IMG/VR virus record: IMGVR_UViG_3300024346_000003
Reading direction: 5' to 3' (one strand)
Length of the DNA: 64,000 nt
Source: a virus
Taxonomy: Duplodnaviria; Caudoviricetes
Positions 19,954 to 55,459 of this stretch are shown piece by piece. Position 1 is the first letter of the stretch. Each line of letters begins with the position of its first letter. The notes under the pieces were generated by a model. It had not been told where the DNA came from. It saw only the letters and a program-made list of their open reading frames with translations, and did not search any database. The translations under genes were made by a program, and so were the position numbers.

Positions 19954-20041
19954 TGAATGTGGTGGGAATCGAACCCACGTTGGAGAATTAACTCACCAGA
20001 TTAAGAGTCTGGACCGTTCGCCTAGCTACGGATACACATTC
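19954..20041 (-). tRNA. tRNA-Lys(CTT)-like with long variable arm
   Basis: Acceptor GAATGTG/CACATTC, anticodon arm CCAGA-CTCTTAA-TCTGG, 17-nt variable arm, T arm GTGGG-TTCGATT-CCCAC. Confidence 0.65.
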
Positions 20042-20048
20042 AATTTAG

Positions 20049-20121
20049 TGCGCCTGGAGGGCCTTGAACCCTCTACCTTCCCGTTAAAAGCGGGAAGCCC
20101 GTCCACATGAGCTTCAGGCGC
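20049..20121 (-). tRNA. tRNA-Lys(TTT)
   Basis: TCCCG-CTTTTAA-CGGGA; acceptor GCGCCTG/CAGGCGC. Confidence 0.85.
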
Positions 20122-20125
20122 ATAA

Positions 20126-20770
20126 TTAAAATTTCCTACCTATTTTCCATCCATTTTTAAGATAAAAATCAAGGTCTTCCTTTTTAATTTTCTTTACTTC
20201 CTTAGCATTAGTAATCCAGCAAGTTCCAAATTGTGAGTTAGCTTTGCCAGTTCTTTGTTTAGCTTTTTCACTCATTTTACACTTACTCTCTTTGGAATGG
20301 GTTCTATCTTTAAAACTTAAATCACCAGTTACCTTTCTTTTACCATTTTGGTATTGCGTTTTAAGTGAATTGCTTATGTTTTCACTAACTCTATTAACCC
20401 ATTCTGGGTCATTTTCTCTAAGAGTCTTCATCAACTCATTGGTTGCTTTTGAACCCATTTGTTGAATTTCATTCGTGAAACCACCATACCCACCAACTTT
20501 AAGGTTCATACAGTCTTCTTTAGCAATCTCATTAAGATTAACAATTTCGGCTTCTCTAGCTTTAAGTTCGGGTCTACTATCAACAAACTCAAGTATTTCG
20601 ACTTTATGGTTTTCTTTACCATACTTGTTAATCGAGTACCTAAGTCTCTTTCCAGAACCCATGTAACCGTCATTCAAGTTATCTGTTGAATGCATTCCTA
20701 AATAATACTTACCACTAAGTAAGTTAGTTGTTTTGTAAATGAAGTGGTACTTCTTTTCCTTTCTTGACAT
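20126..20770 (-). CDS. GIY-YIG-type (Seg-like) homing endonuclease with NUMOD3-like motif
   Basis: FIYKTTNLLSGKYYLGMH, GYMGSG, HSKESKCKMSEKAK; sits between two tRNA-Lys genes. Confidence 0.8.
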   Translation of the reverse strand: MSRKEKKYHFIYKTTNLLSGKYYLGMHSTDNLNDGYMGSGKRLRYSINKYGKENHKVEILEFVDSRPELKAREAEIVNLNEIAKEDCMNLKVGGYGGFTNEIQQMGSKATNELMKTLRENDPEWVNRVSENISNSLKTQYQNGKRKVTGDLSFKDRTHSKESKCKMSEKAKQRTGKANSQFGTCWITNAKEVKKIKKEDLDFYLKNGWKIGRKF

Positions 20771-20819
20771 ATCTATTGTTTTATAATAAATATGTCGTTA
20801 AGTACAAAAAACAACTATC

Positions 20820-20895
20820 TGGTGCGCCCGACAGGGTTTGAACCTGTGACTCGTAAATTAAAAGTTTACTACTCTACCAACTGAGTTACGAGCGC
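20820..20895 (-). tRNA. tRNA-Lys(TTT), CCA encoded
   Basis: GTAAA-CTTTTAA-TTTAC; canonical cloverleaf. Confidence 0.92.
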
Positions 20896-20994
20896 ATATT
20901 TCTTCTTATGACACTCGTAACTTTTACAGCCGAGTGCCCTAACGTTTCTTCTTCTTTTTTGAAATGATTGTTAAGTTTTTCATAATTTTTAATT

Positions 20995-21180
20995 TTATTG
21001 TTTTATATTATCTTTTTCAATAGCAATGAGTTCATTTTCTATACCCATACCATATTTAGTTGAAGCAATGCAAAATACTATAGTTGCTTCAGTAACAGCT
21101 TCAATTATTTCCTCAATTGAGGTATCTTTTGAAACATTTGTTTCCATACCCAATAATGGTATTTTTATTGTTGAACTCAT
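20995..21180 (-). CDS. Small hypothetical protein inside tRNA operon A
   Basis: 61 aa in a spacer, no tRNA overlap. Confidence 0.4.
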   Translation of the reverse strand: MSSTIKIPLLGMETNVSKDTSIEEIIEAVTEATIVFCIASTKYGMGIENELIAIEKDNIKQ

Positions 21181-21195
21181 AATTTATTATTTTAG

Positions 21196-21346
21196 TGGGG
21201 CTGGGGGGAATCGAACCTAGGTTACCCTATCTACTTCGCTTCAATGATTTGTTTGTCGACCAACGCCTCATATTCACTTTTTGACCTTAGCTGCTATAGC
21301 ACCGCCTTATCGTGGCGGGTCGGTTCACCTCACCGCAAGCAACCCC
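21196..21346 (-). ncRNA. 151-nt tRNA-like RNA with internal 17-codon reading frame (tmRNA-like?)
   Basis: Acceptor GGGGTTG/CAGCCCC-A, TTCGATT loop, no anticodon arm. Confidence 0.45.
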
Positions 21347-21351
21347 ATGTG

Positions 21352-21423
21352 AGCAGACGGCCAGAATCGAACTGGCATCCTCGATTTGGTAAACCGATGC
21401 ACTAACCGTTGTGCTACGCCCGC
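21352..21423 (-). tRNA. tRNA-Gly(ACC)
   Basis: TCGGT-TTACCAA-ATCGA; acceptor GCGGGCG/CGTCTGC, U73. Confidence 0.8.
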
Positions 21424-21470
21424 ATTCTATTTTTTACCTCTATCATAAGAGCTTAAAATATAACAGCCCG

Positions 21471-21547
21471 TGGAGCGGGTGGTGGGACTCAAACCCACAA
21501 CCCCCAGCTTGGAAGGCTAGTGCTCTAATCAATTGAGCTACACCCGC
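21471..21547 (-). tRNA. tRNA-Gly(TCC), CCA encoded
   Basis: CTAGC-CTTCCAA-GCTGG. Confidence 0.92.
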
Positions 21548-21662
21548 ATTTAATAACGTCAGTAGGACTTAACTGGAACCTCTCATTTATATCCAATCAT
21601 CAACGGGTAATTAACCCATAAGGCGTAATCCATACATTGCTGCACGTATATCCTACTTATTG

Positions 21663-21734
21663 AGCACTCTCCCAGAATCGAACTGAGTTATCTGATTTAC
21701 AAGACCAGTGCATCACCGAGTATGCTTAGAGTGC
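21663..21734 (-). tRNA. tRNA-Thr(TGT)
   Basis: CTGGT-CTTGTAA-ATCAG. Confidence 0.88.
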
Positions 21735-21802
21735 AAAATGATTTTTATTTCCCCCTTGAAAAGCCAAGTACAAGTCAAAAATCTAAAATTTACCCTAGCG
21801 AG

Positions 21803-21883
21803 TCGGAGCGGAGGGATTCGAACCCCCATGCCGTTAGGACTTGATTTACAGTCAAGCGAGCCAGCCAATTGCTCAACACTCCG
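21803..21883 (-). tRNA. tRNA-Tyr(GTA)
   Basis: CTTGA-CTGTAAA-TCAAG, long variable arm. Confidence 0.9.
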
Positions 21884-21889
21884 AAATAC

Positions 21890-21947
21890 AGGATGGTACA
21901 CTGTTCCAAATTAAAAGTTTGATAGTATATATTGCTGTAACCATCCT
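21890..21947 (-). ncRNA. Hairpin element with CAGCAA motif and a tRNA-Lys anticodon stem-loop mimic
   Basis: AGGATGGT...ACCATCCT closing stem; internal CAAA-CTTTTAA-TTTG. Confidence 0.45.
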
Positions 21948-21951
21948 TTGT

Positions 21952-22024
21952 TATCCGAGAGGGCTTCGAACCCCCAGATTCTCCCTTCAAAGGGGAGTGA
22001 CTTTGCCAGTTTGTCTATCGGACA
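21952..22024 (-). tRNA. tRNA-Gln(TTG)
   Basis: CTCCC-CTTTGAA-GGGAG. Confidence 0.9.
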
Positions 22025-22073
22025 ATAACTTCCCATAACTTATTTTTTTAATGGCTTATGGAAACCATATCAG

Positions 22074-22147
22074 TCGAGATTGGAGGAATTTAACCTACCA
22101 TTCAACACCCCCCATGAGTGTGGTCTTAAACAATAGACGAAATCTCG
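22074..22147 (-). pseudogene. Degenerate tRNA, anticodon undetermined (6- or 8-nt loop containing CATGGG)
   Basis: Acceptor CGAGATT/AATCTCG and D arm intact; anticodon loop and T loop aberrant. Confidence 0.5.
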
Positions 22148-22150
22148 TTG

Positions 22151-22224
22151 TCGAATAGGCTGGATTCGAACCAGCGTGCTCGGCATTCCAAATGCCGCTA
22201 GATAAACCGCTCCTATACTACTCG
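22151..22224 (-). tRNA. tRNA-Pro(TGG)
   Basis: CGGCA-TTTGGAA-TGCCG. Confidence 0.82.
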
Positions 22225-22276
22225 TTAAATTACGTTCCTATCTCTACAGCAGTTTACGTACAACTATAACTGTTCG

Positions 22277-22352
22277 TAGGGATACAGAGACTCGAACTCT
22301 GATGATGCCTACGTCCCAAACGTAGTGACTTAGCCAATTAGTCCACATCCCT
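22277..22352 (-). tRNA. tRNA-Pro(TGG)
   Basis: CTACG-TTTGGGA-CGTAG. Confidence 0.88.
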
Positions 22353-22399
22353 ATAAATTACATTCCTACTAGAGTTTATGTATAACTTAATTACCCAAC

Positions 22400-22411
22400 A
22401 TGTCAAAGAAC
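22400..22411 (-). promoter_or_regulatory. boxA-like antitermination signal
   Basis: GTTCTTTGACAT, identical copy at 54875-54886. Confidence 0.45.
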
Positions 22412-22453
22412 ATATAAACTTTATTTTTTGTCCCGTTTATAAAATTATGGACA

Positions 22454-22490
22454 TAAAAAAACCCGAACTGCAATTAGCGATTCGGGTTTT
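22454..22490 (-). terminator. Attenuator terminator, tRNA operon A
   Basis: AACCCGAA-TCGCTAATTGCAG-TTCGGGTT followed by a U tract. Confidence 0.88.
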
Positions 22491-22512
22491 AAATATCTTG
22501 TTGTTTTAATGA

Positions 22513-22617
22513 TTAAATGATTTCCTCACTACCAACTTGATATGACACACCCGTCACACTAGGCTTCCCGCCTTGCGTATACTGTTTCGGTTGATATGTC
22601 GTACCTGTTGTTCTCAT
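22513..22617 (-). CDS. Attenuator leader peptide A (Thr/Gly/Tyr/Gln/Pro/Lys sensor), 34 aa
   Basis: MRTTGTTYQPKQYTQGGKPSVTGVSYQVGSEEII; codons 3-19 all T/G/Y/Q/P/K. Confidence 0.85.
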   Translation of the reverse strand: MRTTGTTYQPKQYTQGGKPSVTGVSYQVGSEEII

Positions 22618-22661
22618 TTTATTTTTTTTAATTATTTTTTACTGTTTCTATTAAATATATG

Positions 22662-22693
22662 CAAATATACTAAAAGTTTATAATATATGCAAC
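22662..22693 (-). promoter_or_regulatory. Bacteroidota-type promoter of tRNA operon A
   Basis: TATATTTG (-7 box) within the shared AACTTTTAGTATATTTGCATATATTTAAT block; TTG upstream. Confidence 0.8.
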
Positions 22694-22762
22694 TTTTTTT
22701 TAAATTATTTTTTTTAACCCACAGGTTTGATTGCTCAGGGACCCATGGTAATTATTTTTTAG

Positions 22763-22833
22763 AAGCGGATTCAGGACTCGAACCTGGCTATGGGGTTATG
22801 AGCCCCTTGTGCTACCAATTACACCAAACCGCA
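22763..22833 (-). tRNA. Initiator tRNA-fMet(CAT)
   Basis: AGGGG-CTCATAA-CCCCA with three consecutive G-C pairs; unpaired 1:72. Confidence 0.75.
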
Positions 22834-22838
22834 ATATG

Positions 22839-22912
22839 TTCACCATAAGGGACTTCAACCCTCATCTCCACTCCCAAACGGAATAGTGCACTTACTTTGT
22901 GCTAATGGTAAA
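22839..22912 (-). pseudogene. Degenerate tRNA (Pro-like loop sequence, enlarged loop)
   Basis: Acceptor TTACCAT/ATGGTGA, D arm GCAC/GTGC; loop CCGTTTGGG; T loop TTGAAGT. Confidence 0.45.
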
Positions 22913-22923
22913 TAATGTTAGCC

Positions 22924-22975
22924 AGAATCATCTTTTTTTTCATAAACGAATTTTTGAATTTGCTGAACTGATTCT
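22924..22975 (-). ncRNA. Second CAGCAA-containing hairpin element
   Basis: AGAATCA-GTTCAGCAA...TGATTCT. Confidence 0.35.
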
Positions 22976-24715: not shown

Positions 24716-25534
24716 TTATGAATTTATTAAAAGTTGTTTTATTTCATTAACTATATCTAAATGTTGTGGACCAAATTTCTCCCAAGCTAATCCCATTTCC
24801 TTTAAATCATAGTGTTTAACTACTGTGCTATAATCTTTAACACCATCTTTGTGTCCTATTATGTAGATACTATCAGCTAATTCAACCGCCAAATTTATAT
24901 CGTGTGTTGAAAATATGATGGTGTTCAACTCATGACTTTCTTGTATTAATTTGAATGCTGATTTAACATTCTCAATATTACCAACATCTAAACCACTGAA
25001 CGGTTCATCAAATACCATAAAATGACCTGATGATAACAGTTGTTCAATAATCGCAGTTCTTTGTCTTTGACCACCAGATAATTCACATGGGTATTTATCC
25101 TTATGTTCAAATAATCCCCAATCAGTTAGATACTTATCAATCAGTGTTGATTTCTCATCTTTAGTAATACCTTTCTTTCTTAAGGCATAATTACAGATTT
25201 GTGTGATTGTTTTGTGTCTGAACAATGTATACTTTTGGTCAACAAACCCAACATCACCTTCACCAACCAATTTAGCATCATCTTTATTGACACTACTTAT
25301 ATCAGTAATCAATACTCTACCAGTTGTTGGTTTAATCAAACCAGTCAAAGCTTTGAATAATGTTGATTTACCTCTACCAGAACGACCAACTACTGCGATT
25401 GTCTGACCAACTACAGAACCTTCCGAAATAACATCGTGTTCAGTAATATTAATATCTTTAATAATTGTTTTACCATCATATGCAACACTAATGTTGTCAA
25501 GACATAAAATTGTTTCTTTAATTTCGTATTTCAT
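24716..25534 (-). CDS. ABC transporter ATP-binding protein (NitT/TauT-like)
   Basis: GRSGRGKST, LSGGQRQR, FDEPFSGLD, STHD. Confidence 0.92.
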   Translation of the reverse strand: MKYEIKETILCLDNISVAYDGKTIIKDINITEHDVISEGSVVGQTIAVVGRSGRGKSTLFKALTGLIKPTTGRVLITDISSVNKDDAKLVGEGDVGFVDQKYTLFRHKTITQICNYALRKKGITKDEKSTLIDKYLTDWGLFEHKDKYPCELSGGQRQRTAIIEQLLSSGHFMVFDEPFSGLDVGNIENVKSAFKLIQESHELNTIIFSTHDINLAVELADSIYIIGHKDGVKDYSTVVKHYDLKEMGLAWEKFGPQHLDIVNEIKQLLINS

Positions 25535-25536
25535 AA

Positions 25537-26304
25537 TTAGATTTTTGAATATCTGAATAAACGTTTTCTGATGAATGTTAATGTGAAGTCCATAAATAGA
25601 CCAACTAACAAGATGATTAACTGCAATGCAATGATTCGACCATGATTCATGAACTTATCAGAATTTTTAATAAGAAATCCTAAACCACCAGCAGCCGCTA
25701 ATATTGATTCAACCGTTACTAACATCATCCACACAATTGCTAGATTTTGTCTAACTACTTCAATAACGTAGTCCACACGACCTTTAATTACAACTTCCCA
25801 TAGAATCTCCCATCTATTGCAACCAAGTGCTCTAGCGTGGTCAAAATCCTCTTGTGGGATATCTTTTAGCATTGCTAATAATGATGTTGTTAAATAAGTT
25901 GTCATAAATGTTACCAACACCCAAACTTGAATTGCTCTACCATCAGTTAATAATATTGATATGTAAAATGAAATTCCAGTTAAAGGTAGGTATCTAAATT
26001 TACTTAAAATATTAGATATCGGTGATATTACTGGTAGTGTTGATAGATACGCAAATACCAAGGATATTGATATTGCAATTAATACAGCTTTACCACATAG
26101 TGCTAATGAACTAAATATGTGAACAATTAATCCCTCTTTATAAAGTTCAGATACACCACTAAATACTTGACCTGGTGTTGGGAACATATGTGTAGTCCCA
26201 AGACTAGATAAAACCCAAAGTGTTATAATGGTTAACAACCAACCTAATCCTATAAAAAGTTTAGTTTTTTGGGTTATATTCTCGAAAGGTTTAAAAATAT
26301 TCAT
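25537..26304 (-). CDS. ABC transporter permease
   Basis: TM helices; DHARALGCNRWEIL (EAA loop); GGLGFLI. Confidence 0.88.
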   Translation of the reverse strand: MNIFKPFENITQKTKLFIGLGWLLTIITLWVLSSLGTTHMFPTPGQVFSGVSELYKEGLIVHIFSSLALCGKAVLIAISISLVFAYLSTLPVISPISNILSKFRYLPLTGISFYISILLTDGRAIQVWVLVTFMTTYLTTSLLAMLKDIPQEDFDHARALGCNRWEILWEVVIKGRVDYVIEVVRQNLAIVWMMLVTVESILAAAGGLGFLIKNSDKFMNHGRIIALQLIILLVGLFMDFTLTFIRKRLFRYSKI

Positions 26305-26883: not shown

Positions 26884-28710
26884 TTACTGTAGTAATGTGA
26901 TTTCTACTCGTCTATTCTTGGCTTTACCTTGCGCCGTTGAGTTATCAGCAACTGGTCTAGAATCACCTTTACCATCTACCTCTTGGATACGTGATTTGGG
27001 AATTCCACGATTTTCAAGGTATTCAACTACCGCATTTGCTCTACCTTTAGATAAGGTCATGTTGCTTGATGGGTTACCAACGTTATCAGTGTGACCCACA
27101 ATTCTTAATTTAGAATCTTCCGCTTGCATTAACAAGTTATAGATTTTCTCTAAATCTTTATTTGATACTTGTTGAATTGTAGTACTTCCAGTTGCAAAGT
27201 TAATATTCCAGTTACCACTAGCCATAACGTGTGTTTTGTTTTTTGAGTAATCAGATTTTTCGACCATACCTACATCAATATCATCAATGTTTTTCAAGTA
27301 ACGTAAGTTTACAGCTTCATCGTAAGGTACAATTCTATCAACTGATTGCATAAATCCGTAAGGATTCAATTCACTTAAGTACGTTGATACTTGGTTATAT
27401 ACTGACTCATAACGATTGATACCATCACTGATACCGTAGTATTGCATAGCATCACCATAGTTAAGTACTCTTGACCCACCCATGTTGTATACAAGTCCGT
27501 TTTTATTACCTTTCGTACCTTTGAACATTGTGTACCAGTATTCAGGTGTTTCCATATCAAATGTCTTTGCAACACATTCAGATGCTTTTACTCTCCATGA
27601 ATCATATTGTTTCATTTGGTTAGATGCGGTCAATGCTGATTTAAGGATATTACTTACGATTTTAGGGTGTTTTGCCGCCCATTCTTTAACACCGATTAAA
27701 GTAGTTGCCATTTGATTTCTAAATTCATGTGTTGATACAACATCAGTAAATCCAGTCAATGCATCAAATACAACCTTATCACCAGGTGTCCATGTAGCAC
27801 AACCATCAATTTTCTTATTGATTGTCTTACCAGTCAATTTACCGTCTTTAACTTCTTTCAATTCAACAGTGAAACCATTCTTTTGAGATTTGATTAATTC
27901 TTTTGCAGAGTTAATATAGTCATCATCTTCAGATGGGTAAAAGTTTACAGCTTCAGGGTCATATGTTGTTACATCAGGATTAACTTTCAATCCATTAGCA
28001 AAAACGTAGTTTAATGAAGTTACCCAGTCACCATCACCAATAACAGTTGAGATAAGAGCACCTTTCATTGATTGTGGGTCTGTTTTCCATTCTTTAGGTC
28101 CGATTAATTTATCTTCACCATCTGACATACCGAAACAACCTTGCACTTCTACGTGATATTTACCTTCACCAAATTTATCATCTAATGCTGATTGCATAGT
28201 AGAGATGTAATATGGTGCACCATCACCCATTATAATAACACCATAAGCTGATTTATTAGATTTAGGATATTCAACACCACGGTCCATTTCCTCAATAAAC
28301 TTCAACTGCATATTCTTTAATTCGGTAACCCAGTCTTGTCTGATGATTTCCAAATTAACACCGTTTGCCTCCATAAGGGAACCTTCAGTTGTTTTTGGAC
28401 CACCATTTGCTACGATGATACCAGATTGGCCATTCCAAGCGTATCCAGCAATTCGTACTACTGATTTATCAGACATTTCACTTGATAACTCATCAGATGG
28501 TAAATCAATCAAAGTACTTCTCATACTGTTATCGATATTATCATCACTCAATTCCATTCCGTCTAGTGTTTTAGATTCATCTACACGAAGTCCAGGTGCT
28601 AAGAAATACACACCAGTTAAAACGATGGCTAAACCAGCCGCTAAAATAAAAATTTCAAATCCTGTAGTCAAACCTTGATTTGGATTTTTTCTGTTAAAAA
28701 TTTTTCCCAT
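26884..28710 (-). CDS. Periplasmic substrate-binding-like domain fused to C-terminal OmpA peptidoglycan-binding domain
   Basis: N-terminal TM; INFATGS...VGHTDNVG...LSKGRANAV...KNRRVEI. Confidence 0.8.
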   Translation of the reverse strand: MGKIFNRKNPNQGLTTGFEIFILAAGLAIVLTGVYFLAPGLRVDESKTLDGMELSDDNIDNSMRSTLIDLPSDELSSEMSDKSVVRIAGYAWNGQSGIIVANGGPKTTEGSLMEANGVNLEIIRQDWVTELKNMQLKFIEEMDRGVEYPKSNKSAYGVIIMGDGAPYYISTMQSALDDKFGEGKYHVEVQGCFGMSDGEDKLIGPKEWKTDPQSMKGALISTVIGDGDWVTSLNYVFANGLKVNPDVTTYDPEAVNFYPSEDDDYINSAKELIKSQKNGFTVELKEVKDGKLTGKTINKKIDGCATWTPGDKVVFDALTGFTDVVSTHEFRNQMATTLIGVKEWAAKHPKIVSNILKSALTASNQMKQYDSWRVKASECVAKTFDMETPEYWYTMFKGTKGNKNGLVYNMGGSRVLNYGDAMQYYGISDGINRYESVYNQVSTYLSELNPYGFMQSVDRIVPYDEAVNLRYLKNIDDIDVGMVEKSDYSKNKTHVMASGNWNINFATGSTTIQQVSNKDLEKIYNLLMQAEDSKLRIVGHTDNVGNPSSNMTLSKGRANAVVEYLENRGIPKSRIQEVDGKGDSRPVADNSTAQGKAKNRRVEITLLQ

Positions 28711-30616: not shown

Positions 30617-30715
30617 TTTTTTTCTTTTTTTCGTTAATAATATTTTTAATTACCTGACAAAGATATGTATAATATTTCAATTAAACAAATATTTTTTAAT
30701 TTTTTTTGATTTTAG

Positions 30716-30788
30716 TTGAGATAAGGGGTTTCGAACCCCGTGTTTCCACCCGTCTAGGTGGCGTTCTAACCAATTAAACTATATCCCA
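30716..30788 (-). pseudogene. tRNA-like gene with 6-nt anticodon loop (TAGACG) and G3:U70
   Basis: TGGGATA/TATCTCA acceptor; CCACC-TAGACG-GGTGG. Confidence 0.5.
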
Positions 30789-30792
30789 ATTT

Positions 30793-30918
30793 GTCGATGT
30801 TAAGGGACTCGAACCCATGAGCGGATGCCTCCTATTGTGTTACCTATTATTTAACGTGGACTCGAACCACACAGCCACCAAGACCAAATCCGAATCGAAC
30901 GGAATACTCGCCAACAAC
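30793..30918 (-). ncRNA. Element with three TPsiC-like hairpins
   Basis: TCCG-TTCGATT-CGGA, GTGG-TTCGAGT-CCAC, GGG-TTCGAGT-CCC. Confidence 0.5.
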
Positions 30919-30925
30919 ACCGTTG

Positions 30926-31068
30926 TGGAGGATACAGGACTCGAACCTGTGGCCATGGGGTTATCCCCACATCTATTTATCAGGCTAATTCATTGTACTT
31001 CTGAATCTCAAACACCCTATCTTCAATGGTAACTATAGTTACTACTCTACCAACTGAGCTAATCCCCC
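30926..31068 (-). ncRNA. 143-nt alanine-identity tRNA-like RNA with internal reading frame (candidate mini-tmRNA)
   Basis: GGGGGAT/ATCCTCC (G3:U70), A73, D and T arms; anticodon arm replaced by about 80 nt containing a 16-codon frame ending TGA TAA. Confidence 0.6.
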
Positions 31069-31112
31069 AAATAAGATTTTTGTAATTACCTGGAATCTTA
31101 TAACCAGTTATG

Positions 31113-31186
31113 TGGAGCTAGGGGTGTATGATACCCCATCTCCGCATTGCAAGTGCGGTGTGTTAGCCAGTTGTCACCATAGCCCC
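31113..31186 (-). tRNA. tRNA-Ala(TGC), atypical T loop
   Basis: CCGCA-CTTGCAA-TGCGG; G3:U70; T loop ATCATAC. Confidence 0.8.
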
Positions 31187-31229
31187 AAAATTAAGATTTT
31201 TAATAGTATCATAGAATCTTTTAACTATG

Positions 31230-31305
31230 TGGCGGACGTGACGGGAGTTGAACCCGCTCCGAACTGCGTGACAGGCAGACATCTTAACCGTTTGACCTCA
31301 CATCC
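31230..31305 (-). tRNA. tRNA-Asp(GTC), CCA encoded
   Basis: TCTGC-CTGTCAC-GCAGT. Confidence 0.88.
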
Positions 31306-31371
31306 AAAGTTACTTTTTCTTTCTCAGCTATTCAGCGTCTAGGAAATATAAAAGTATAAAACCCTACATCG

Positions 31372-31440
31372 TTGTGAGTATGGGACTCGAACCCATATCA
31401 ACCGCTCACTGCGGCCATCCTGACCATTAGACGAACTCAC
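31372..31440 (-). pseudogene. Degenerate tRNA (GTG-like loop lacking U33)
   Basis: T arm ATGGG-TTCGAGT-CCCAT intact; loop CAGTGAG. Confidence 0.45.
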
Positions 31441-31512
31441 TAAACCAACTTTATCTGACTGCAATCATCAATCATTGGCTCTCTTGCAAGTATTGCAGTA
31501 CTTGCTTGATAG

Positions 31513-31584
31513 TACTGATACGGAGAATCGAACTCCGATTTTATGGTTGAAAACCATATGTCCTAACCGTTAGACGATACCAGC
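31513..31584 (-). tRNA. tRNA-Glu(TTC)
   Basis: TATGG-TTTTCAA-CCATA. Confidence 0.9.
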
Positions 31585-31587
31585 ATT

Positions 31588-31664
31588 TGGTGGGAACAGT
31601 GGGACTCGAACCCACGACACCTAGAGCTTCAATCTAGTGCTACTACCAACTGAGCTACATTCCC
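31588..31664 (-). tRNA. tRNA-Phe(GAA), CCA encoded
   Basis: CTAGA-TTGAAGC-TCTAG. Confidence 0.9.
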
Positions 31665-31743: not shown

Positions 31744-31776
31744 AAAAAAAGCTCTGATTTTTAGGTCAGAGCTTTT
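31744..31776 (-). terminator. Attenuator terminator, tRNA operon B
   Basis: AAGCTCTGA-CCTAAAAA-TCAGAGCTT followed by a U tract. Confidence 0.88.
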
Positions 31777-31799: not shown

Positions 31800-31889
31800 T
31801 TAACTTATGACAATAGTTGACCTTCCCAAGCTTTCATCCGCCTCGGCTGCAAAAAATGCAAAATCAAATATGTTAGTTAATGTTCTCAT
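31800..31889 (-). CDS. Attenuator leader peptide B (Phe/Asp/Ala/Glu sensor), 29 aa
   Basis: MRTLTNIFDFAFFAAEADESLGRSTIVIS; codons 8-19 all F/D/A/E. Confidence 0.85.
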   Translation of the reverse strand: MRTLTNIFDFAFFAAEADESLGRSTIVIS

Positions 31890-31924: not shown

Positions 31925-31955
31925 CAAATATACTAAAAGTTTTTTTATTTGTCAA
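31925..31955 (-). promoter_or_regulatory. Promoter of tRNA operon B
   Basis: TTGACA...TATATTTG, same block as operons A, C, D. Confidence 0.8.
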
Positions 31956-32932: not shown

Positions 32933-33144
32933 ATTATAAATATTTAAACTTTATCAAATATAATAACTATTTTTGTACTATCCAAATTTATTTGATTATT
33001 TTTTTGATTATTTAAACCATAAGCATCACATGATGTTTTCTTTGTAGCACAAGATGCTAGTATTATTGCTAGTAATAGTAATTTTTTCATATTAATAAAT
33101 ATATACTAAAAATAAAAATGGTCAACACCTTGCTGACCATATTG

Positions 33145-33228
33145 TACGGATAGTCGGACTCGAACCGACAATCATATTTCAGAACACGGGTCTAAGCCGT
33201 GCGGGTCTACCAATTCCCCCATATCCGC
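33145..33228 (-). tRNA. tRNA-Leu(TAG)
   Basis: CACGG-CTTAGAC-CCGTG, long variable arm. Confidence 0.88.
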
Positions 33229-33232
33229 ATTT

Positions 33233-33335
33233 AAGATTGAAGTAGGTCTCAAACCTACACAGTAGCCTTTGTTAGACCTCTAATGCTACCACCCCAGGTT
33301 ATCGAGGCATGTCTATCAATTCCATCATTCAATCT
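33233..33335 (-). pseudogene. Leu-type tRNA-like gene with aberrant anticodon loop and enlarged variable arm
   Basis: AGATTGA/TCAATCT acceptor; Leu-type D arm ATGATGGAATTGATAGACAT; 8-nt loop GATAACCT. Confidence 0.5.
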
Positions 33336-33336
33336 A

Positions 33337-33419
33337 TGGTAGTCCGAGAGGGACTCGAACCCTCACTCCGAAGAACTGCGGCTTAAACACAGCGTGTATA
33401 CCAATTTCACCATCGGACC
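33337..33419 (-). tRNA. tRNA-Leu(TAA), CCA encoded
   Basis: CTGTG-TTTAAGC-CGCAG. Confidence 0.9.
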
Positions 33420-33465
33420 ATTTTGCACTTCCTACCCATCCATATCGTATAGTGCTAACCGCTAG

Positions 33466-33539
33466 TACACCCTGTAGGATTCGAACCTACGACCCTTCGG
33501 ATGTAAACCGAATGCTCTAACCAACTGAGCTAAGGATGT
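33466..33539 (-). tRNA. tRNA-Val(TAC)
   Basis: TTCGG-TTTACAT-CCGAA. Confidence 0.92.
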
Positions 33540-33550
33540 ATATGGTAGGT

Positions 33551-33880
33551 TTAACCTACCTTTATAAATGTTTCATTCTTTATGGCTTTACTAATCCATC
33601 TGTTAAGCTCGGAGCCTCTCATTTCACTGTAGAAAGTAGTTGTTCCAAGGTCTTCAGACAATGTTGTGACCACATCTGACTCCTTAACTTCTGCATCAAC
33701 TTCTAAAGTTGATACATGATATCTAACCTTTACATCAACTGTTGAAATTGGAAACTCGTATATATCACCAAACACTTCAATGTTGTAATACAAGTTACCA
33801 GCAATATAGTGACTAAACTTAGCCATTGCTTTTGACTTAAATAAGTCTTTTTTTATTTCAGTTTCATTAAACATAACCAT
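33551..33880 (-). CDS. Hypothetical protein inside tRNA operon C
   Basis: 109 aa between tRNA-Cys and tRNA-Val. Confidence 0.6.
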   Translation of the reverse strand: MVMFNETEIKKDLFKSKAMAKFSHYIAGNLYYNIEVFGDIYEFPISTVDVKVRYHVSTLEVDAEVKESDVVTTLSEDLGTTTFYSEMRGSELNRWISKAIKNETFIKVG

Positions 33881-34039
33881 TTTTTTTTCTTCGTTTAAAG
33901 AGTAACTTTATAGTATTTAAACTAATCTTATTATTTTTATCAGCTCTAACATGTCTAAAATTTTCATATGACCCTTTATATGTTCCCGTTAATACTACTT
34001 TCCCCTCATTATCTTTTCTTTCCATAATCTATCTTTTTG

Positions 34040-34112
34040 AGCTGGGAGAGGGATTTGAACCCCCGTATGTGGATTTGCAATCCACTGCCTAAAGCCACTC
34101 GACCATCCCAGC
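34040..34112 (-). tRNA. tRNA-Cys(GCA)
   Basis: GTGGA-TTGCAAA-TCCAC, U73. Confidence 0.92.
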
Positions 34113-34119: not shown

Positions 34120-34152
34120 AAAAAACCCGAAGTGACTAATCGCTTCGGGTTG
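34120..34152 (-). terminator. Attenuator terminator, tRNA operon C
   Basis: AACCCGAAG-CGATTAGTCA-CTTCGGGTT followed by a U tract. Confidence 0.88.
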
Positions 34153-34180: not shown

Positions 34181-34255
34181 TCAACACAGCCCGAAACTGA
34201 CTACCACTAAAAGTAGACATAAGTTAAGTACCAAAATGTTGTTAATTGTTTTCAT
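34181..34255 (-). CDS. Attenuator leader peptide C (Leu/Val/Cys sensor), 24 aa
   Basis: MKTINNILVLNLCLLLVVVSFGLC; 11 of codons 8-19 are L/V/C. Confidence 0.85.
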   Translation of the reverse strand: MKTINNILVLNLCLLLVVVSFGLC

Positions 34256-34291: not shown

Positions 34292-34322
34292 CAAATATAC
34301 TAAAAGTTTTTTAATTTGTCAA
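34292..34322 (-). promoter_or_regulatory. Promoter of tRNA operon C
   Basis: TTGACA...TATATTTG shared block. Confidence 0.8.
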
Positions 34323-34366: not shown

Positions 34367-34696
34367 TTGATTATAATTTACCCAATGGATAAGGTATATT
34401 TACTAGCAAATGAAGAATGGACACAATTTAAAATTGGTGTCACAAAAAACGTAACTAATAAACGAAAAAGTGATTTACAAACTGGTAATGGTTCTGAAAT
34501 AATTATAGTTAATACTTTTGAAACTAGATTTTCAAACAAAGTTGAGAAGTGGTTGCATAGAAAATACAATTCAAAGCGATTAGTTGGTGAATGGTTTGCG
34601 CTTAATGACAATGATATTACTAATTTCATATCTGATTGTCAAAAAGCGCATGATACATTCCAATGTTTAATCGATAGTGGGAATCCTTTTATATAA
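34367..34696 (+). CDS. GIY-YIG domain protein (T5orf172/Mug113-like)
   Basis: VYLL...FKIGVTK...LQTGN...EKWLH...GEWF. Confidence 0.75.
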   Translation: MIIIYPMDKVYLLANEEWTQFKIGVTKNVTNKRKSDLQTGNGSEIIIVNTFETRFSNKVEKWLHRKYNSKRLVGEWFALNDNDITNFISDCQKAHDTFQCLIDSGNPFI

Positions 34697-36676: not shown

Positions 36677-37329
36677 TTATTTTTTTCAGAAGCATATTTA
36701 ACACCCATTATTGTCCCCACAATACTAAATGCGTTGGTTAATAATATACCAACGATATTACTCCATGTTGAGCCTACAATTGCTGTATCTCTATTTGTAA
36801 GTAAAGAAATAATAAAGACACCTGTGGTTATAATACCTACGCTGATAATAATCCATAGTGCAACTTTAACAATTGACCCTATCAATTCAAATTGTGACTT
36901 CTTCTGTAATAATTCTAAATCATTTTCAACTGAAGCTCTAGCATTTTCAGCTTCACGTCTAGCTATTTCAGATTCTTCTCTGGCATTTTCAGCTTCTATT
37001 TTTAAATGTTCAGCTTCAAATCTAGCTGATTCAGCTTCATTTTTAGCACATTCATTTTCTTTTAAACTATGAATTAATTCTTCTTGTATTCGAATATTCT
37101 CTTCCTTCCAGGTAATTAATTCATTATTTTGTTTTTGAATTTGTTTTGTGATTTCCAACCTTTTTTTTCGGGTTGTCATATCTTTGTCAACACAACTTTT
37201 GATATATTTTTCAAATAGTTCATCACCATCAGTATCAATAACTTTAAGAATATTACCCTCAAGTGAAATCTTTTTAGTTTTATGTAACTGAATTAATAAA
37301 TCTTTAGTCTTGTTGTCAACTTTAATCAT
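36673..37329 (-). CDS. Coiled-coil protein with C-terminal TM helices, co-transcribed with the two-component pair
   Basis: EAE repeats, two TM segments. Confidence 0.6.
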   Translation of the reverse strand: MIKVDNKTKDLLIQLHKTKKISLEGNILKVIDTDGDELFEKYIKSCVDKDMTTRKKRLEITKQIQKQNNELITWKEENIRIQEELIHSLKENECAKNEAESARFEAEHLKIEAENAREESEIARREAENARASVENDLELLQKKSQFELIGSIVKVALWIIISVGIITTGVFIISLLTNRDTAIVGSTWSNIVGILLTNAFSIVGTIMGVKYASEKNN

Positions 37330-37763: not shown

Positions 37764-37774
37764 AATTGTTTTTT

Positions 37775-52549: not shown

Positions 52550-52599
52550 ATATTATAAATATCATTAAAAAATTAAAAATTTGACATATTAGTAAATAG

Positions 52600-52688
52600 T
52601 AGAGAAGATGGGATTCGAACCCATGGGACCTTATTAAAGGTCCACCACATTAGCAGTGTGGCCACTTAAACCTCTCGTGCACCTCTCT
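52600..52688 (-). tRNA. tRNA-Ser(GCT)
   Basis: CCACA-CTGCTAA-TGTGG, long variable arm. Confidence 0.9.
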
Positions 52689-52694
52689 ATATTG

Positions 52695-52767
52695 TACCCC
52701 TAGAGGGATTCTAACCCCCATTCTAGCCTTAGAAGGGCCATGTCCTATACAGTTGAACGATAGGGGC
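52695..52767 (-). tRNA. tRNA-Arg(TCT)
   Basis: TGGCC-CTTCTAA-GGCTA. Confidence 0.85.
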
Positions 52768-52775
52768 GTGTATTG

Positions 52776-52848
52776 TACCCTCGACTGGATTCGAACCAGT
52801 ATTTTTGGTTTCGTAGACCAATGTTCTAATCCATTGAACTACAAGGGC
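52776..52848 (-). tRNA. tRNA-Arg(ACG)
   Basis: TTGGT-CTACGAA-ACCAA. Confidence 0.9.
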
Positions 52849-53030
52849 ATATTGTTATAATAAGAGTATAAACTGATATAAAACACACCAACCGTATCGT
52901 ATTTATATTCACCGTTTTTATTTGGTGGTTCAATCGCAACAATAGGATAATTCTCACCTAGTATTTTTTGATATTCCATAAATTGATTGTCCGTCTTTGG
53001 TATTGACATTTTTGTGTATAATAAATCCAT
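52839..53030 (-). CDS. Small hypothetical protein inside tRNA operon D
   Basis: MDLLYTKM... start avoids the upstream tRNA; stop overlaps the 5' end of tRNA-Arg(ACG). Confidence 0.35.
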   Translation of the reverse strand: MDLLYTKMSIPKTDNQFMEYQKILGENYPIVAIEPPNKNGEYKYDTVGVFYISLYSYYNNMPL

Positions 53031-53044
53031 AATATTTAAATTAG

Positions 53045-53115
53045 TACCGCCTGTGAGGTTCGAACTCACCTTTCCATCCATATGAGGGATAGTTGTACTC
53101 CACTGACTAGCGGCA
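53045..53115 (-). tRNA. tRNA-Met(CAT)-like (elongator Met or Ile2), irregular D arm and acceptor
   Basis: TATCC-CTCATAT-GGATG; T arm GTGAG-TTCGAAC-CTCAC. Confidence 0.6.
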
Positions 53116-53235
53116 TTTTGGTCGATGTCTAGAATCTTTAACCTCCTTTCTTGGCAAGGTCTCCATCATGGGTTCCGTTGATTGATTCATCTTTATAACC
53201 CCATACGGAACAAGCGGGGTAACCAAATTATTTTG

Positions 53236-53309
53236 CTCTTCAGGAGGGATTCGAACCCCCAACCCATCGGTTAACAACCGATTGCTCTGACCATTATAGC
53301 TACCGAAGA
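53236..53309 (-). tRNA. tRNA-Asn(GTT)
   Basis: ATCGG-TTGTTAA-CCGAT. Confidence 0.88.
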
Positions 53310-53385
53310 ATAAAAAAGTTTAGAGGCTTTGGGTTAGACACGCCTCAATATTACATGAGAGACCCCATAGATTGCATAAACTTTG

Positions 53386-53462
53386 TACAGAAGGTGAGAT
53401 TCGAACTCACATGTGACCAACTACCCTTTCTACAAGATATAAGCTTGAGGGGATACATCTGC
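53386..53462 (-). ncRNA. tRNA-like RNA with TAT anticodon-like loop and no canonical D arm
   Basis: Acceptor GCAGATG/CTTCTGT, CAAG-CTTATAT-CTTG, T arm GTGAG-TTCGAAT-CTCAC. Confidence 0.55.
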
Positions 53463-53519
53463 ATTTTTATAAGTGGCCAAAACTATGTTTTTTAGTGAGT
53501 TTTGGCCACTTATAAATTG

Positions 53520-53560
53520 TAGGAAACACGGGACTCGAACCCATAACCTTTCACGTATAA
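53520..53560 (-). pseudogene. 3' half of an interrupted tRNA-Ile(TAT)
   Basis: TTATAC-GTGAA-AGGTT-ATGGG-TTCGAGT-CCCGT-GTTTCCT-A. Confidence 0.7.
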
Positions 53561-53568
53561 ATATTTAG

Positions 53569-53640
53569 TAGGCATGTCGAGATTCGAACTCGAAATACAA
53601 CAGTATCAGTGTTGCGTGATAACCATTTCACTACACGCCT
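53569..53640 (-). tRNA. tRNA-Ile(GAT)
   Basis: CAACA-CTGATAC-TGTTG. Confidence 0.88.
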
Positions 53641-54208
53641 ATTTATTTAATTCTTCATGTATTTCTCTATGACAATTTGCGCAGACCATAATACATTTGT
53701 CTAATTCTAGTTTTATCTTTTCCCATGATAACACTGAGTAGGAACCAATTCCAAAATCTTTTTCGTTTGGGTCTAAATGATGAAATTCTAACGCTGAATT
53801 ACATCTATCATACCCACATTTTTGACAACAACCACCTTTATATTCAATAGCTTTTTCTTTTAACTTTTGACGAAAGTTTTTAACTTTTTGATAATTTCTA
53901 ATTTTTAACTCTTCATCGTTTAATTTAACATACTTATTTTCAGTATGTTTAATTATTGTTGATTTACCTAGATTAAATTTAACCATACATTCTTCAATGG
54001 TGTGGTCTTTATAGAAGCTATTTAATTCTTCTATTTCAATCTTTGTTAATTTAGCTCTTTGTTTACTAACAAAATTACCACCTAAATTATTATTGTTGCA
54101 ATGAAATGAAACGGTGCTTTTTGAACAATTCAATAGTTCACTTATTTCATTATAATTTTTACCAGAGTTTCTCAACTCTAGAATACTTTCTTTTAAACTT
54201 GTAGTCAT
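53639..54208 (-). CDS. HNH homing endonuclease with N-terminal HTH
   Basis: CQKCGY...LEFHHLDP...CIMVCANCHREIH. Confidence 0.85.
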   Translation of the reverse strand: MTTSLKESILELRNSGKNYNEISELLNCSKSTVSFHCNNNNLGGNFVSKQRAKLTKIEIEELNSFYKDHTIEECMVKFNLGKSTIIKHTENKYVKLNDEELKIRNYQKVKNFRQKLKEKAIEYKGGCCQKCGYDRCNSALEFHHLDPNEKDFGIGSYSVLSWEKIKLELDKCIMVCANCHREIHEELNK

Positions 54209-54280
54209 ATCAATATCTTTTATAGTTATAAATATACTACAAGTTCTAAAAAAGTCAATAGGTGCTAATTTTTATTTTTT

Positions 54281-54307
54281 TGCTCTAACCAGTTGAGCTA
54301 GCTTCCT
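54281..54307 (-). pseudogene. 5' half of the interrupted tRNA-Ile(TAT)
   Basis: AGGAAGC-TA-GCTC-AACTGGTTA-GAGC-A; AGGAAGC pairs with GTTTCCT at 53521-53527. Confidence 0.7.
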
Positions 54308-54326
54308 ATTGTGAGTGGAAGCCCCA

Positions 54327-54563
54327 TTACTTCCACTTTGTTTTTCTGTTGTGTTTCCACGTTTTGTATTCTCGCCATTTATGATTTGGTAGCTTACGGT
54401 GGCTCCAATTCCACCCATAATCCCATATGTTATAACCATAAATGTTCATCCATCGAATACAATTGTATTCTTTAGAAGTTTTTGCTTTGTTCAGTTTTGC
54501 TCTGTTAATTTTTTTACTCATAATGTTGTGAGTCTGTGAATAGCAGACCTTACAACATATCAA
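54327..54563 (-). CDS. Small basic hypothetical protein inside tRNA operon D
   Basis: Trp/Lys/Arg-rich; probable start at MSKKINR. Confidence 0.4.
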   Translation of the reverse strand: MICCKVCYSQTHNIMSKKINRAKLNKAKTSKEYNCIRWMNIYGYNIWDYGWNWSHRKLPNHKWREYKTWKHNRKTKWK

Positions 54564-54591
54564 ATTCCTTTTTCATAAATTTTAAATTTTG

Positions 54592-54678
54592 AGGAGGGGG
54601 TGGGACTCGAACCCACACACCACTAGGGCCTACGGTTTTCAAAACCGCCAAGCTTAGACCGACTGCTCTTACCCCTCC
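54592..54678 (-). tRNA. tRNA-Ser(TGA)
   Basis: GCGGT-TTTGAAA-ACCGT, long variable arm. Confidence 0.85.
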
Positions 54679-54689
54679 ATTTTTAAATA

Positions 54690-54782
54690 ATAAGGCTACA
54701 GCCTTATAATGTTATAATATAAGGCTACAGCCTTATAACCTTATAACGTTATAATATAAGGTTATAACCTTATAACGTTATA
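54690..54782. repeat. Tandem palindromic TTATAA / AAGGCTACAGCCTT repeats
   Basis: TAAGGCTACAGCCTTATAA twice and CCTTATAACGTTA twice. Confidence 0.7.
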
Positions 54783-54786
54783 TTAG

Positions 54787-54857
54787 CACGACTAGTAGGA
54801 TTCGAACCCACATCAAGGGATTTGGAATCCCGTATGCTACCATTGCACCATAGTCGT
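54787..54857 (-). tRNA. tRNA-Trp(CCA)
   Basis: CGGGA-TTCCAAA-TCCCT. Confidence 0.88.
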
Positions 54858-54874
54858 GTATTTTACTTACCAAT

Positions 54875-54886
54875 ATGTCAAAGAAC
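54875..54886 (-). promoter_or_regulatory. boxA-like antitermination signal
   Basis: GTTCTTTGACAT, identical to 22400-22411. Confidence 0.45.
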
Positions 54887-54893
54887 CTTTGTT

Positions 54894-54977
54894 GGTGTCT
54901 GACGGGAATTGAACCCGCATGTCGTAAGACCCCTGTTTCACAGACAGGTGTGGCAAACTAATATCCACCTCAGACAC
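54894..54977 (-). tRNA. tRNA-His(GTG) with enlarged (13-nt) variable region
   Basis: CCTGT-CTGTGAA-ACAGG. Confidence 0.75.
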
Positions 54978-54979
54978 AG

Positions 54980-55054
54980 CTCCCCAGACAGGATTCGAAC
55001 CTGTAACCCCTCGATTAACAGTCGAGTGCTCTAACCAGTTGTAGCTACTGGGGA
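54980..55054 (-). tRNA. tRNA-Asn(GTT)
   Basis: CTCGA-CTGTTAA-TCGAG. Confidence 0.92.
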
Positions 55055-55224
55055 ATGTTAATGGTGACAAATATTGTTACTTTGCCACCCTTCTTTTCAA
55101 ATTTAAGATTACCGTTGTAACCCATTTCTTTTGCTTTCGCATTGTATTCGTCATAAATCTTATCGAAGTCCTTTTGGAAGTCTGAGACTTTTACAGTTCC
55201 TAATGTTCTTACTAATTTTTCCAT
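55045..55224 (-). CDS. Small hypothetical protein, first gene after attenuator D
   Basis: MEKLVRTLGTVKV... starts just after the terminator. Confidence 0.5.
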   Translation of the reverse strand: MEKLVRTLGTVKVSDFQKDFDKIYDEYNAKAKEMGYNGNLKFEKKGGKVTIFVTINIPQ

Positions 55225-55238
55225 AATTTTTATGACAT

Positions 55239-55272
55239 AAAAAAACCCAACTCTATTTCTAGGTCGGGTTTC
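55239..55272 (-). terminator. Attenuator terminator, tRNA operon D
   Basis: AACCCGAC-CTAGAAATAGA-GTTGGGTT followed by a U tract. Confidence 0.88.
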
Positions 55273-55294
55273 TGATTTTATTAAATTCTTATTT

Positions 55295-55393
55295 TTAGAA
55301 CTCAATGATATCGCTGAACATACCAGACCTAGTTTGTAGACTATTACGTCTCCAATTACTAATCGACATTCTATGTATGTTATTTGTTATCAT
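55295..55393 (-). CDS. Attenuator leader peptide D (Asn/His/Trp/Ser/Ile/Met/Arg sensor), 32 aa
   Basis: MITNNIHRMSISNWRRNSLQTRSGMFSDIIEF; codons 4-18 all N/I/H/R/M/S/W. Confidence 0.85.
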   Translation of the reverse strand: MITNNIHRMSISNWRRNSLQTRSGMFSDIIEF

Positions 55394-55428
55394 TGTGTTT
55401 TTTTATTCGTGTATTAATTAAATATATG

Positions 55429-55459
55429 CAAATATACTAAAAGTTTTTTTATTTGTCAA
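55429..55459 (-). promoter_or_regulatory. Promoter of tRNA operon D
   Basis: TTGACA...TATATTTG shared block; 5' UTR nearly identical to operon B. Confidence 0.8.

Follow-up and report, generated by a model that had tools for sequence, protein, structure and literature searches.

The 64,000-nt stretch of phage DNA analysed here, from IMG/VR virus record IMGVR_UViG_3300024346_000003 (Duplodnaviria; Caudoviricetes) and referred to below as the window, carries four tRNA gene clusters on its minus strand. We describe the sequences in front of these clusters as candidate leader-peptide attenuators of tRNA genes; the whole analysis was computational. Each cluster is preceded by the same layout, consisting of an identical 29-nt promoter block, an open reading frame (ORF) of 24–34 codons and an intrinsic terminator. 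We call the four copies units A, B, C and D, the short ORFs leaders, the run of codons that matches the downstream tRNAs the sensing run, and the leader segment that can pair with the 5′ arm of the terminator region 2 (Table 1).

Organization of the four tRNA units

The 29-nt block occurs exactly four times, always on the minus strand and with 0 mismatches, against 0 copies expected by chance. Each copy holds a near-consensus TTGACA-N17-TATATT promoter (the −35 element is TTGCAT in unit A), and the second hexamer of the shared block doubles as a Bacteroidota-type TAnnTTTG box. An independent sigma-70 scan placed the promoters of B and C as the top two sites in 19.9–35 kb. The leader ATG lies 50–61 nt from the first base of the block and is preceded by an A-rich stretch without a Shine-Dalgarno sequence. 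Downstream of each leader there is a GC-rich hairpin followed by a T run (−13.9 to −17.1 kcal/mol) and then tRNA genes on the same strand; in unit D, a small ORF sits between the terminator and the first tRNA. Scanning the window from end to end by structure alone gave no ORF-plus-terminator units other than A–D, apart from trivial overlaps. The original observation of four minus-strand copies of promoter, ORF, hairpin and tRNA cluster was borne out by four exact blocks with all of their parts.

All 32 tRNA genes that ARAGORN called in the window lie on the minus strand; they make up the four clusters and two further genes just upstream of promoter A. Rfam confirmed 29 of the 32 calls, with the His-like gene of cluster B, the Lys-like gene near promoter A and Met(CAU) of cluster D falling below its threshold. 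Two genes of cluster B look aberrant, the His-like gene (31371–31441) and a tRNA-like gene with a 6-nt loop (30715–30788). A split Ile(TAT) tRNA in cluster D was not found by ARAGORN in intron mode. The four tRNA sets serve 6, 4, 3 and 7 amino acids, are disjoint and together cover all 20 amino acids. The predicted count of 6 + 4 + 3 + 7 = 20 without overlap therefore holds, with the aberrant genes of cluster B, the sub-threshold Met(CAU) and the two genes outside the units as caveats.

Leader codons match the downstream tRNAs

We found that residues cognate to the downstream tRNAs occupy 16/16 of leader positions 4–19 in unit A, 12/16 in B, 11/16 in C and 15/16 in D. The total is 54 of 64, whereas 2.4–5 cognate residues would be expected per leader of 16 (product of binomial p = 5e-26). 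Moreover, each amino acid served by a cluster is present in its own leader (6/6, 4/4, 3/3 and 7/7). The true pairing of leaders with clusters scores 54 and the runner-up permutation 34; among 200,000 random 6/4/3/7 partitions of the amino acids, the maximum was 44. These values confirm the earlier claim that the leader cores match the tRNAs that follow them.

The match is a property of one reading frame. In the frame opened by the leader ATG the cognate fraction is 0.58, compared with 0.18 and 0.12 in the other two frames and a background of 0.19. Comparison of homologous leaders gave 51 identical codons at cognate positions, 21 synonymous changes, 12 swaps from one cognate residue to another and 19 swaps with a non-cognate residue, so that synonymous and within-set substitutions predominate.

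Leader codons also follow the anticodons of their own unit. The number of leader codons that could be decoded by these anticodons was 219 of 247, compared with 200.5 expected from synonymous usage, and the observed number was reached in 0 of 20,000 simulations. In genomes that divide their Arg isoacceptors among units, the Arg codon box followed the anticodon of the unit in 7/7 cases: units with ACG or TCG anticodons contain CGN codons only (5/5), and units with UCU or CCU anticodons contain AGR codons (2/2). CGN is the minority Arg box in the window (93 vs 358). Where a unit encodes tRNAs for both codon boxes of Arg, Ser or Leu, its leader contains both boxes (9/9). The finding that Arg codons track the unit's own anticodon and that rare boxes are over-sampled fits sensing of tRNA species rather than of amino acids, although the signal is less clean for Ser and Ile.

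Recurrence of the units in other phages

Close IMG/VR relatives of the phage carry nearly identical units. A complete 288-kb relative, G002, has only A-type and D-type units, and its tRNA genes are limited to the same types; those for Phe, Glu, Asp, Ala, Cys, Val and Leu are absent. Diverged variants of B, C and D have an altered order and sequence of the sensing run with its composition kept. No near-DNA relatives were found among GenBank phages, where only tRNAs matched.

A gene near unit C for an RlaP-type nucleotidyltransferase led to uncultured phages of 630–735 kb and to Lak megaphages. Candidate units in the huge phages were chosen by structure only, as an ATG ORF of 12–50 codons with a terminator no more than 130 nt away and a tRNA no more than 450 nt away. 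In this way, 20 units were obtained from three Bacteroidota-type phages of 630–735 kb (LR745206, LR756502 and LR756501). Their amino-acid groupings differ from those of the window and include His/Phe/Trp/Lys, Arg/Ser, Glu/Tyr, Ile/Gly/Met/Ala, Asn/Leu/Val/Ile/Thr/Arg/Met, Pro/Asp, Gln alone and Leu alone. When all candidates were kept, none of 200,000 reassignments of these 20 units reached the observed agreement between leaders and tRNAs. Within each of four genomes the true pairing was the single best of 24, 5,040, 5,040 and 24 permutations, respectively, and 86 of 90 tRNA amino acids were found in their own leader. Lak-A1 contained one convincing unit, complete with terminator and region 2, and three further viral (IMG/VR) contigs contained six more. 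Units with different amino-acid sets thus recur in at least nine phage genomes or contigs. Co-variation of leader codons with tRNA content in related and other phages had been set beforehand as a test by which the model could be refuted, and in each comparison the leaders followed their own tRNAs.

Such leaders were not found everywhere. A Vibrio straboviral array of 26 tRNAs and a Synechococcus cyanophage had none beyond chance, and in one Flavisolibacter genome none of the 113 candidate ORFs resembled one; these ORFs came from 20 tRNA loci, one of which is an 11-gene cluster.

Several arrangements in the huge phages differ from those in the window. Some leaders in LR745206.1 and LR756502.1 (L036, L040 and L042; for example, those of the Gln-only units) lack a separate promoter and begin immediately behind the preceding tRNA; these would be internal attenuators nested in a longer tRNA operon. 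The Pro/Asp leader upstream of the Gln-only unit also contains Gln codons. In the 735-kb phage, a cluster of Ile, Cys, Asp, Asn and Tyr tRNAs (LR756501.1, 185.5–189.5 kb, minus strand; L046) has no detectable leader; the product of the ORF in front of it resembles the C-terminal domain of ribosomal protein L7/L12.

Alternative pairing of region 2 with the terminator

A terminator was found between the leader and the first tRNA in all 24 units tested (24/24), with a median stability of −16.6 kcal/mol. For each unit the duplex between region 2 and the terminator 5′ arm was compared with 1,000 shuffles. The pairing was better than the shuffles (p<0.05) in 14 of the 24 units, and the combined probability by Fisher's method was 3.5e-18. 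Region 2 frequently overlaps the leader stop codon in these units. In the window, region 2 (codons ~19–27) pairs with the 5′ arm in A–D at −14 to −22 kcal/mol, which is comparable to the terminators themselves; compared with shuffles, p was 0.001 for C and D and 0.02 for A.

Relatives of the phage show concerted changes in region 2 and the terminator, namely in a B variant (L021), a C variant (L024) and the D variant of G002. In the L021 B variant, region 2 has a strong co-varying pairing with the terminator. The region 2 sequence of A is conserved at the DNA level in G002, between flanks that have diverged.

We also folded the leaders with a ribosome footprint as a constraint. In full-length folds of unit C, the probability of the terminator was 0.00 for stalls at codons 1–13 and 0.95 from codon 16 on, whereas unit B flipped only with stalls at codons 12–14. 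In folds truncated before the 3′ arm, the 5′ arm was sequestered in all four units with the ribosome at codons 6–16 and was released at codon 18. A ribosome placed at the stop codon left the 5′ arm of the truncated folds largely free in A, B and C, but in D this arm was mostly paired again.

Predicted attenuators in the probable host clade

The ABC transporter ATPase encoded between the units is 60–65% identical to proteins of Mucilaginibacter, Pedobacter, Chitinophagaceae, Flavisolibacter and Saprospiraceae, which indicates that the host is probably in Bacteroidota. The best matches of the host-like genes point to Chitinophagia/Sphingobacteriia; Flavobacterium itself is not supported by the gene matches.

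In the complete genome of Flavisolibacter sp. (OZ252003.1), hisG, trpE and pheA are each preceded by a leader with a run of His, Trp or Phe/Tyr codons, followed by a terminator. Their region 2 sits at the stop codon or beside it and pairs with the 5′ arm of the terminator. The leaders begin with MITN.., MK.LINN.. and MTIT.., in the style of the phage leader N-termini, and codons 1–7 of the his leader have almost the same DNA sequence as those of phage leader D, His being one of the amino acids in the D set. Because their start codons lie ~8 nt after the TAnnTTTG box, the mRNAs would be near-leaderless. No ilv or thr leaders could be assigned in this genome, where the genes found were not first in their operons. 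The predicted his, trp and phe leaders with their terminators show, in silico, that the host clade supports ribosome-mediated attenuation, and the likeness suggests that the phage units arose as copies of host amino-acid attenuators and were given new targets. The his, trp and phe attenuators are unannotated and lie at L108 1236–1356, L110 632–790 and L111 (minus strand) 1347–1480.

A model for attenuation of phage tRNA operons

The anatomy of the units, the codon/tRNA match, its frame specificity, the co-varying alternative pairing, the recurrence in other phages and the host-clade template lead us to conclude that each unit is very probably a ribosome-mediated (leader-peptide) transcription attenuator that controls tRNA genes, providing negative feedback on decoding capacity. 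The trp/his/thr-type attenuation geometry proposed at the outset for the four units withstood our computational tests of codon match, terminators and the co-varying antiterminator. From these features we infer leader translation, stall-responsive termination, and the direction and physiological purpose of the response.

According to our model, host RNA polymerase would initiate at the strong Bacteroidota-type promoter and a ribosome would translate the short leader. When the cognate aminoacyl-tRNAs are ample, the ribosome would reach the end of the leader and cover or disrupt region 2; with region 2 blocked, the terminator hairpin would form and transcription would halt before the tRNAs. Conversely, when any tRNA species of the operon is scarce, the ribosome would stall in the sensing run, leaving region 2 free to pair with the terminator 5′ arm, and polymerase would read through into the tRNA cluster. 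The new tRNAs would then speed translation of the leader, and the operon would shut again. The units would thereby act as a negative-feedback homeostat of decoding capacity, divided into four independent channels and serving all 20 amino acids between them.

Several observations weigh against this model. The pairing in unit B was not better than shuffles under the narrow arm definition (p=0.3), its 6-bp AGGTCA/TGACCT helix partly using loop bases, and in the narrow-arm duplex test the antiterminators of both G002 units (A′ and D′) were also no better than shuffles. The expectation that codons ~20–24 would be complementary to the terminator 5′ arm in every leader was therefore clear for C and D and moderate for A, but weak for B. 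Units A and D adopted the terminator fold at equilibrium wherever the ribosome was placed, so that their switch rests on a kinetic argument. Folding with a ribosome footprint, which had been proposed as a check, thus gave a clean switch in C and a partial one in B, but none at equilibrium in A and D. Furthermore, the stop codon of A and D lies ~27–35 nt beyond region 2, making any masking by the terminating ribosome indirect. Ser AGY codons, and part of the Ile codons, stand in leaders whose units have no matching anticodon, and several amino acids are represented by one codon each in a leader. Some tRNA clusters of the huge phages have no leader, and secondary promoters are possible between the terminator and the first tRNA. 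Finally, in our searches of sequencing runs the phage was present in DNA runs of marine and lake metagenomes and in no RNA run; one RNA run matched only an unrelated tRNA-Asn.

We considered four other explanations. The first is that the units answer amino-acid starvation, and hence uncharged tRNA, rather than tRNA abundance, in which case the tRNA output would be a by-product or serve another purpose. A stalled ribosome cannot distinguish a missing tRNA from an uncharged one, and the template appears to derive from attenuators of amino-acid biosynthesis. However, extra tRNA does not relieve amino-acid starvation, and the Arg codons and over-sampled rare boxes follow the anticodons of the unit, less cleanly for Ser and Ile. 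We therefore regard starvation sensing as unlikely.

A second explanation accepts that the leaders are translated and sense cognate decoding but places the regulated step in transcript stability, in processing of the tRNA precursor by RNase P/E or in Rho-type polarity, the hairpins being ordinary terminators or processing signals. The equilibrium folds of A and D, the non-significant antiterminator of B and the lack of a phage transcript match in the searched RNA runs would all agree with such a readout. It is nevertheless quite improbable, since region 2 is significantly complementary to the 5′ arm when the 24 units are taken together and changes in concert with the terminator, the geometry is identical to that of the host-clade his and phe attenuators, and every unit has a terminator between its leader and first tRNA.

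The remaining two explanations are essentially excluded. If the leader RNA were untranslated and its codon run bound tRNAs directly, in the manner of a T-box-like riboswitch with many specifiers, leader codons that are complementary to the downstream anticodons would be accounted for. This explanation is very hard to sustain, as the match is confined to the frame opened by the ATG and closed by the stop codon, homologues differ by synonymous changes and codon-box switches, and the leaders lack a specifier loop or T-box architecture; a gathering-threshold Rfam scan of the window found tRNAs only, with no T-box or other non-tRNA family. Chance, or small peptides of unrelated function in front of tRNA clusters, might be raised because short ORFs are common in AT-rich DNA, but it is effectively refuted by the permutation and partition tests, the frame control and the recurrence in at least nine phage genomes or contigs.

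Coordinates and neighbouring genes

Table 1. Positions of the elements of units A–D in the window
Feature	Position	Strand	Remarks
29-nt promoter block copies	22650-78 (A), 31913-41 (B), 34280-308 (C), 55417-45 (D)	−	Exact match
Promoter A	22664-22692	−	−35 TTGCAT
Leader ORF A	22513-22617	−	34 codons; sensing run codons 3-19 (22561-22611), only Thr/Gly/Tyr/Gln/Pro/Lys
Region 2 of A	22548-22562	−	Pairing with terminator 5′ arm, shuffle p=0.02
Terminator (attenuator) A	22455-22490	−	Intrinsic
tRNA cluster A	19953-22352	−	Pro x2, Gln, Tyr, Thr, Gly(UCC), Gly(ACC), Lys(UUU) x2, Lys(CUU)
Promoter B	31927-31955	−	11/12 match
Leader ORF B	31800-31889	−	29 codons; sensing run codons 8-19 (31833-31868), only Phe/Asp/Ala/Glu
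Region 2 of B	31807-31824	−	Weakest of the four; pairs with arm-loop junction and terminator flank; −13.8 kcal/mol
Terminator (attenuator) B	31744-31776	−	Intrinsic; also called by a simple terminator scanner
tRNA cluster B	30715-31664	−	Phe, Glu, Asp, Ala and two aberrant-looking genes
Promoter C	34294-34322	−	11/12 match
Leader ORF C	34181-34255	−	24 codons; sensing run codons 8-19 (34199-34234), Leu/Val/Cys, both Leu codon boxes
Region 2 of C	34184-34204	−	Ends at leader stop codon; duplex −21 kcal/mol, p=0.001
Terminator (attenuator) C	34120-34151	−	Intrinsic
tRNA cluster C	33144-34112	−	Cys, Val, Leu(UAA), Leu(UAG)
End-of-operon terminator of cluster C	33118-33140	−	
Promoter D	55431-55459	−	TTGACA-N17-TATATT overlapping TAnnTTTG box, at shared block
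Leader ORF D	55295-55393	−	32 codons; sensing run codons 4-18 (55340-55384), only Asn/Ile/His/Arg/Met/Ser/Trp
Region 2 of D	55322-55333	−	Antiterminator strand; duplex −16 kcal/mol, shuffle p=0.001
Terminator (attenuator) D	55239-55273	−	Intrinsic
tRNA cluster D	52599-55054	−	Asn, His, Trp, Ser(UGA), Ile(GAU), Asn, Met(CAU), Arg(ACG), Arg(UCU), Ser(GCU)

Inspection of the region around promoter A revealed an initiator-like tRNA(CAU) with four G-C pairs beside the anticodon loop (22762–22833, minus strand), which lies immediately upstream of the promoter and outside every unit; the aberrant Lys-like gene (22838–22911) adjoins it. G002 carries a Met(CAU) gene at the same place. The prediction that initiator-like tRNAs lie outside attenuated units holds in the window but was dropped, because LR756501 has two inside a unit. 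Between terminator A and the first tRNA-Pro there is a box, TTGACAT.TTGGGTAATTAA (22380–22410, minus strand), that is kept in this phage and in G002 (L017), and in LR756501 (L050) a similar TTGACAT motif follows the attenuator. This box could be a secondary promoter or a processing signal, and could provide attenuator-independent basal expression.

Two clusters contain homing endonuclease genes, a GIY-YIG (SegE-like) gene in cluster A (20126–20770, minus strand) and an HTH-HNH gene in cluster D (53639–54208, minus strand), as is the case in T4-type tRNA regions. Cluster D also contains dense short tandem and palindromic repeats on CCTTATAA / GTTATAA, with periods of 8–37, between tRNA-Trp and tRNA-Ser(UGA) (54690–54782).

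The gene directly upstream of promoter C (34667–35899, minus strand) encodes an RlaP-family 'RNA repair pathway' nucleotidyltransferase. RlaP-type homologues are common to uncultured phages of 630–640 kb, Tenacibaculum phage PTm1 and Lak phages. We considered PTm1 as a cultured model, but it is related by one protein and has no tRNAs according to Rfam. A nucleotidyltransferase of the RNA-repair type next to unit C fits a counter-defence theme and proves nothing. Host-like cargo lies between the units (24716–26304, 26884–28710 and 37326–39202, minus strand), comprising the ABC transporter ATPase with a permease, a 608-aa protein with an OmpA domain and a PAS histidine kinase with an adjacent response regulator.

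Relation to known systems and significance

Enterobacterial leaders include the classic trp, his, phe and leu leaders as well as multivalent ones, such as ilvGMEDA, which senses Ile, Leu and Val, and thr, which senses Thr and Ile. The phage units share with them a promoter, a short leader rich in regulatory codons, which is translated in the enterobacterial systems, and a region 2/3 antiterminator as the alternative to a 3/4 intrinsic terminator; they would also share readthrough upon stalling and the possibility of sensing more than one amino acid. In contrast to the enterobacterial leaders, the phage units would regulate tRNA genes instead of biosynthetic enzymes, such that the molecule sensed is the molecule made. 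They would also sense 3–7 amino acids per leader, mostly with 1–4 codons for each, and they are phage-borne, with four paralogues that partition all 20 amino acids. The Flavisolibacter his, trp and phe attenuators share the N-terminal leader style, the placement of region 2 and the TAnnTTTG-type promoter box, but have single-amino-acid or aromatic runs in front of biosynthetic genes and a start codon ~8 nt after the box.

Leader-peptide control of an aminoacyl-tRNA synthetase operon is exemplified by E. coli pheM-pheST, where ribosome-mediated attenuation also acts on a component of the translation apparatus, although on an enzyme rather than tRNAs and through one amino acid. T-box riboswitches, which have a conserved architecture, bind uncharged tRNA directly without translation; they similarly couple tRNA status to terminator readthrough, but none was detected in the window. 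The tRNA arrays of T4-, T5- and KVP40-like phages resemble those described here in their clustered tRNA genes with embedded homing endonuclease genes, and we know of no codon-matched leaders in them. In bacteria, growth-rate and stringent control, rather than attenuation, are regarded as governing tRNA genes. To our knowledge, essentially nothing has been described of how phages control their own tRNA genes. The claim of no prior description stood up, as we found no published attenuator-controlled tRNA genes in a literature that included the huge-phage genome paper and a recent paper on phage tRNA function and left subscription journals mostly uncovered. Thus, the class of mechanism is classical, whereas its target (tRNA genes), its phage carrier, its multiplexing and the full partition of 20 amino acids are not.

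A broader interpretation is tentative. The units may be isoacceptor-resolved sensors that give the phage a self-adjusting tRNA supply, with each operon firing only on its own shortage. Such a supply would fit hosts with different tRNA pools and would replace tRNAs degraded or cut by the host, amounting to an inducible counter-measure to tRNA-targeting defences. The units may also be host attenuators that were re-targeted and are widespread in jumbo and mega-phages infecting Bacteroidota. Host-range flexibility, compensation for host tRNA decay and counter-defence against anticodon nucleases are conceivable purposes. Starvation and host anticodon nucleases, the triggers proposed at the outset, are likewise speculative.

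If our model is correct, these operons would be the first case in which the speed of ribosomal decoding feeds back directly on transcription of the tRNAs being decoded, and no known leader-peptide sensor would be as multiplexed as their leaders, each of which would read up to seven amino acids, with 20 over the four channels. For synthetic biology in Bacteroidota, the design would provide sensors of codon-specific translation capacity that are both compact and programmable. Moreover, it would become testable why large phages hold near-complete tRNA sets, when these are needed and whether they answer depletion or cleavage of host tRNAs.

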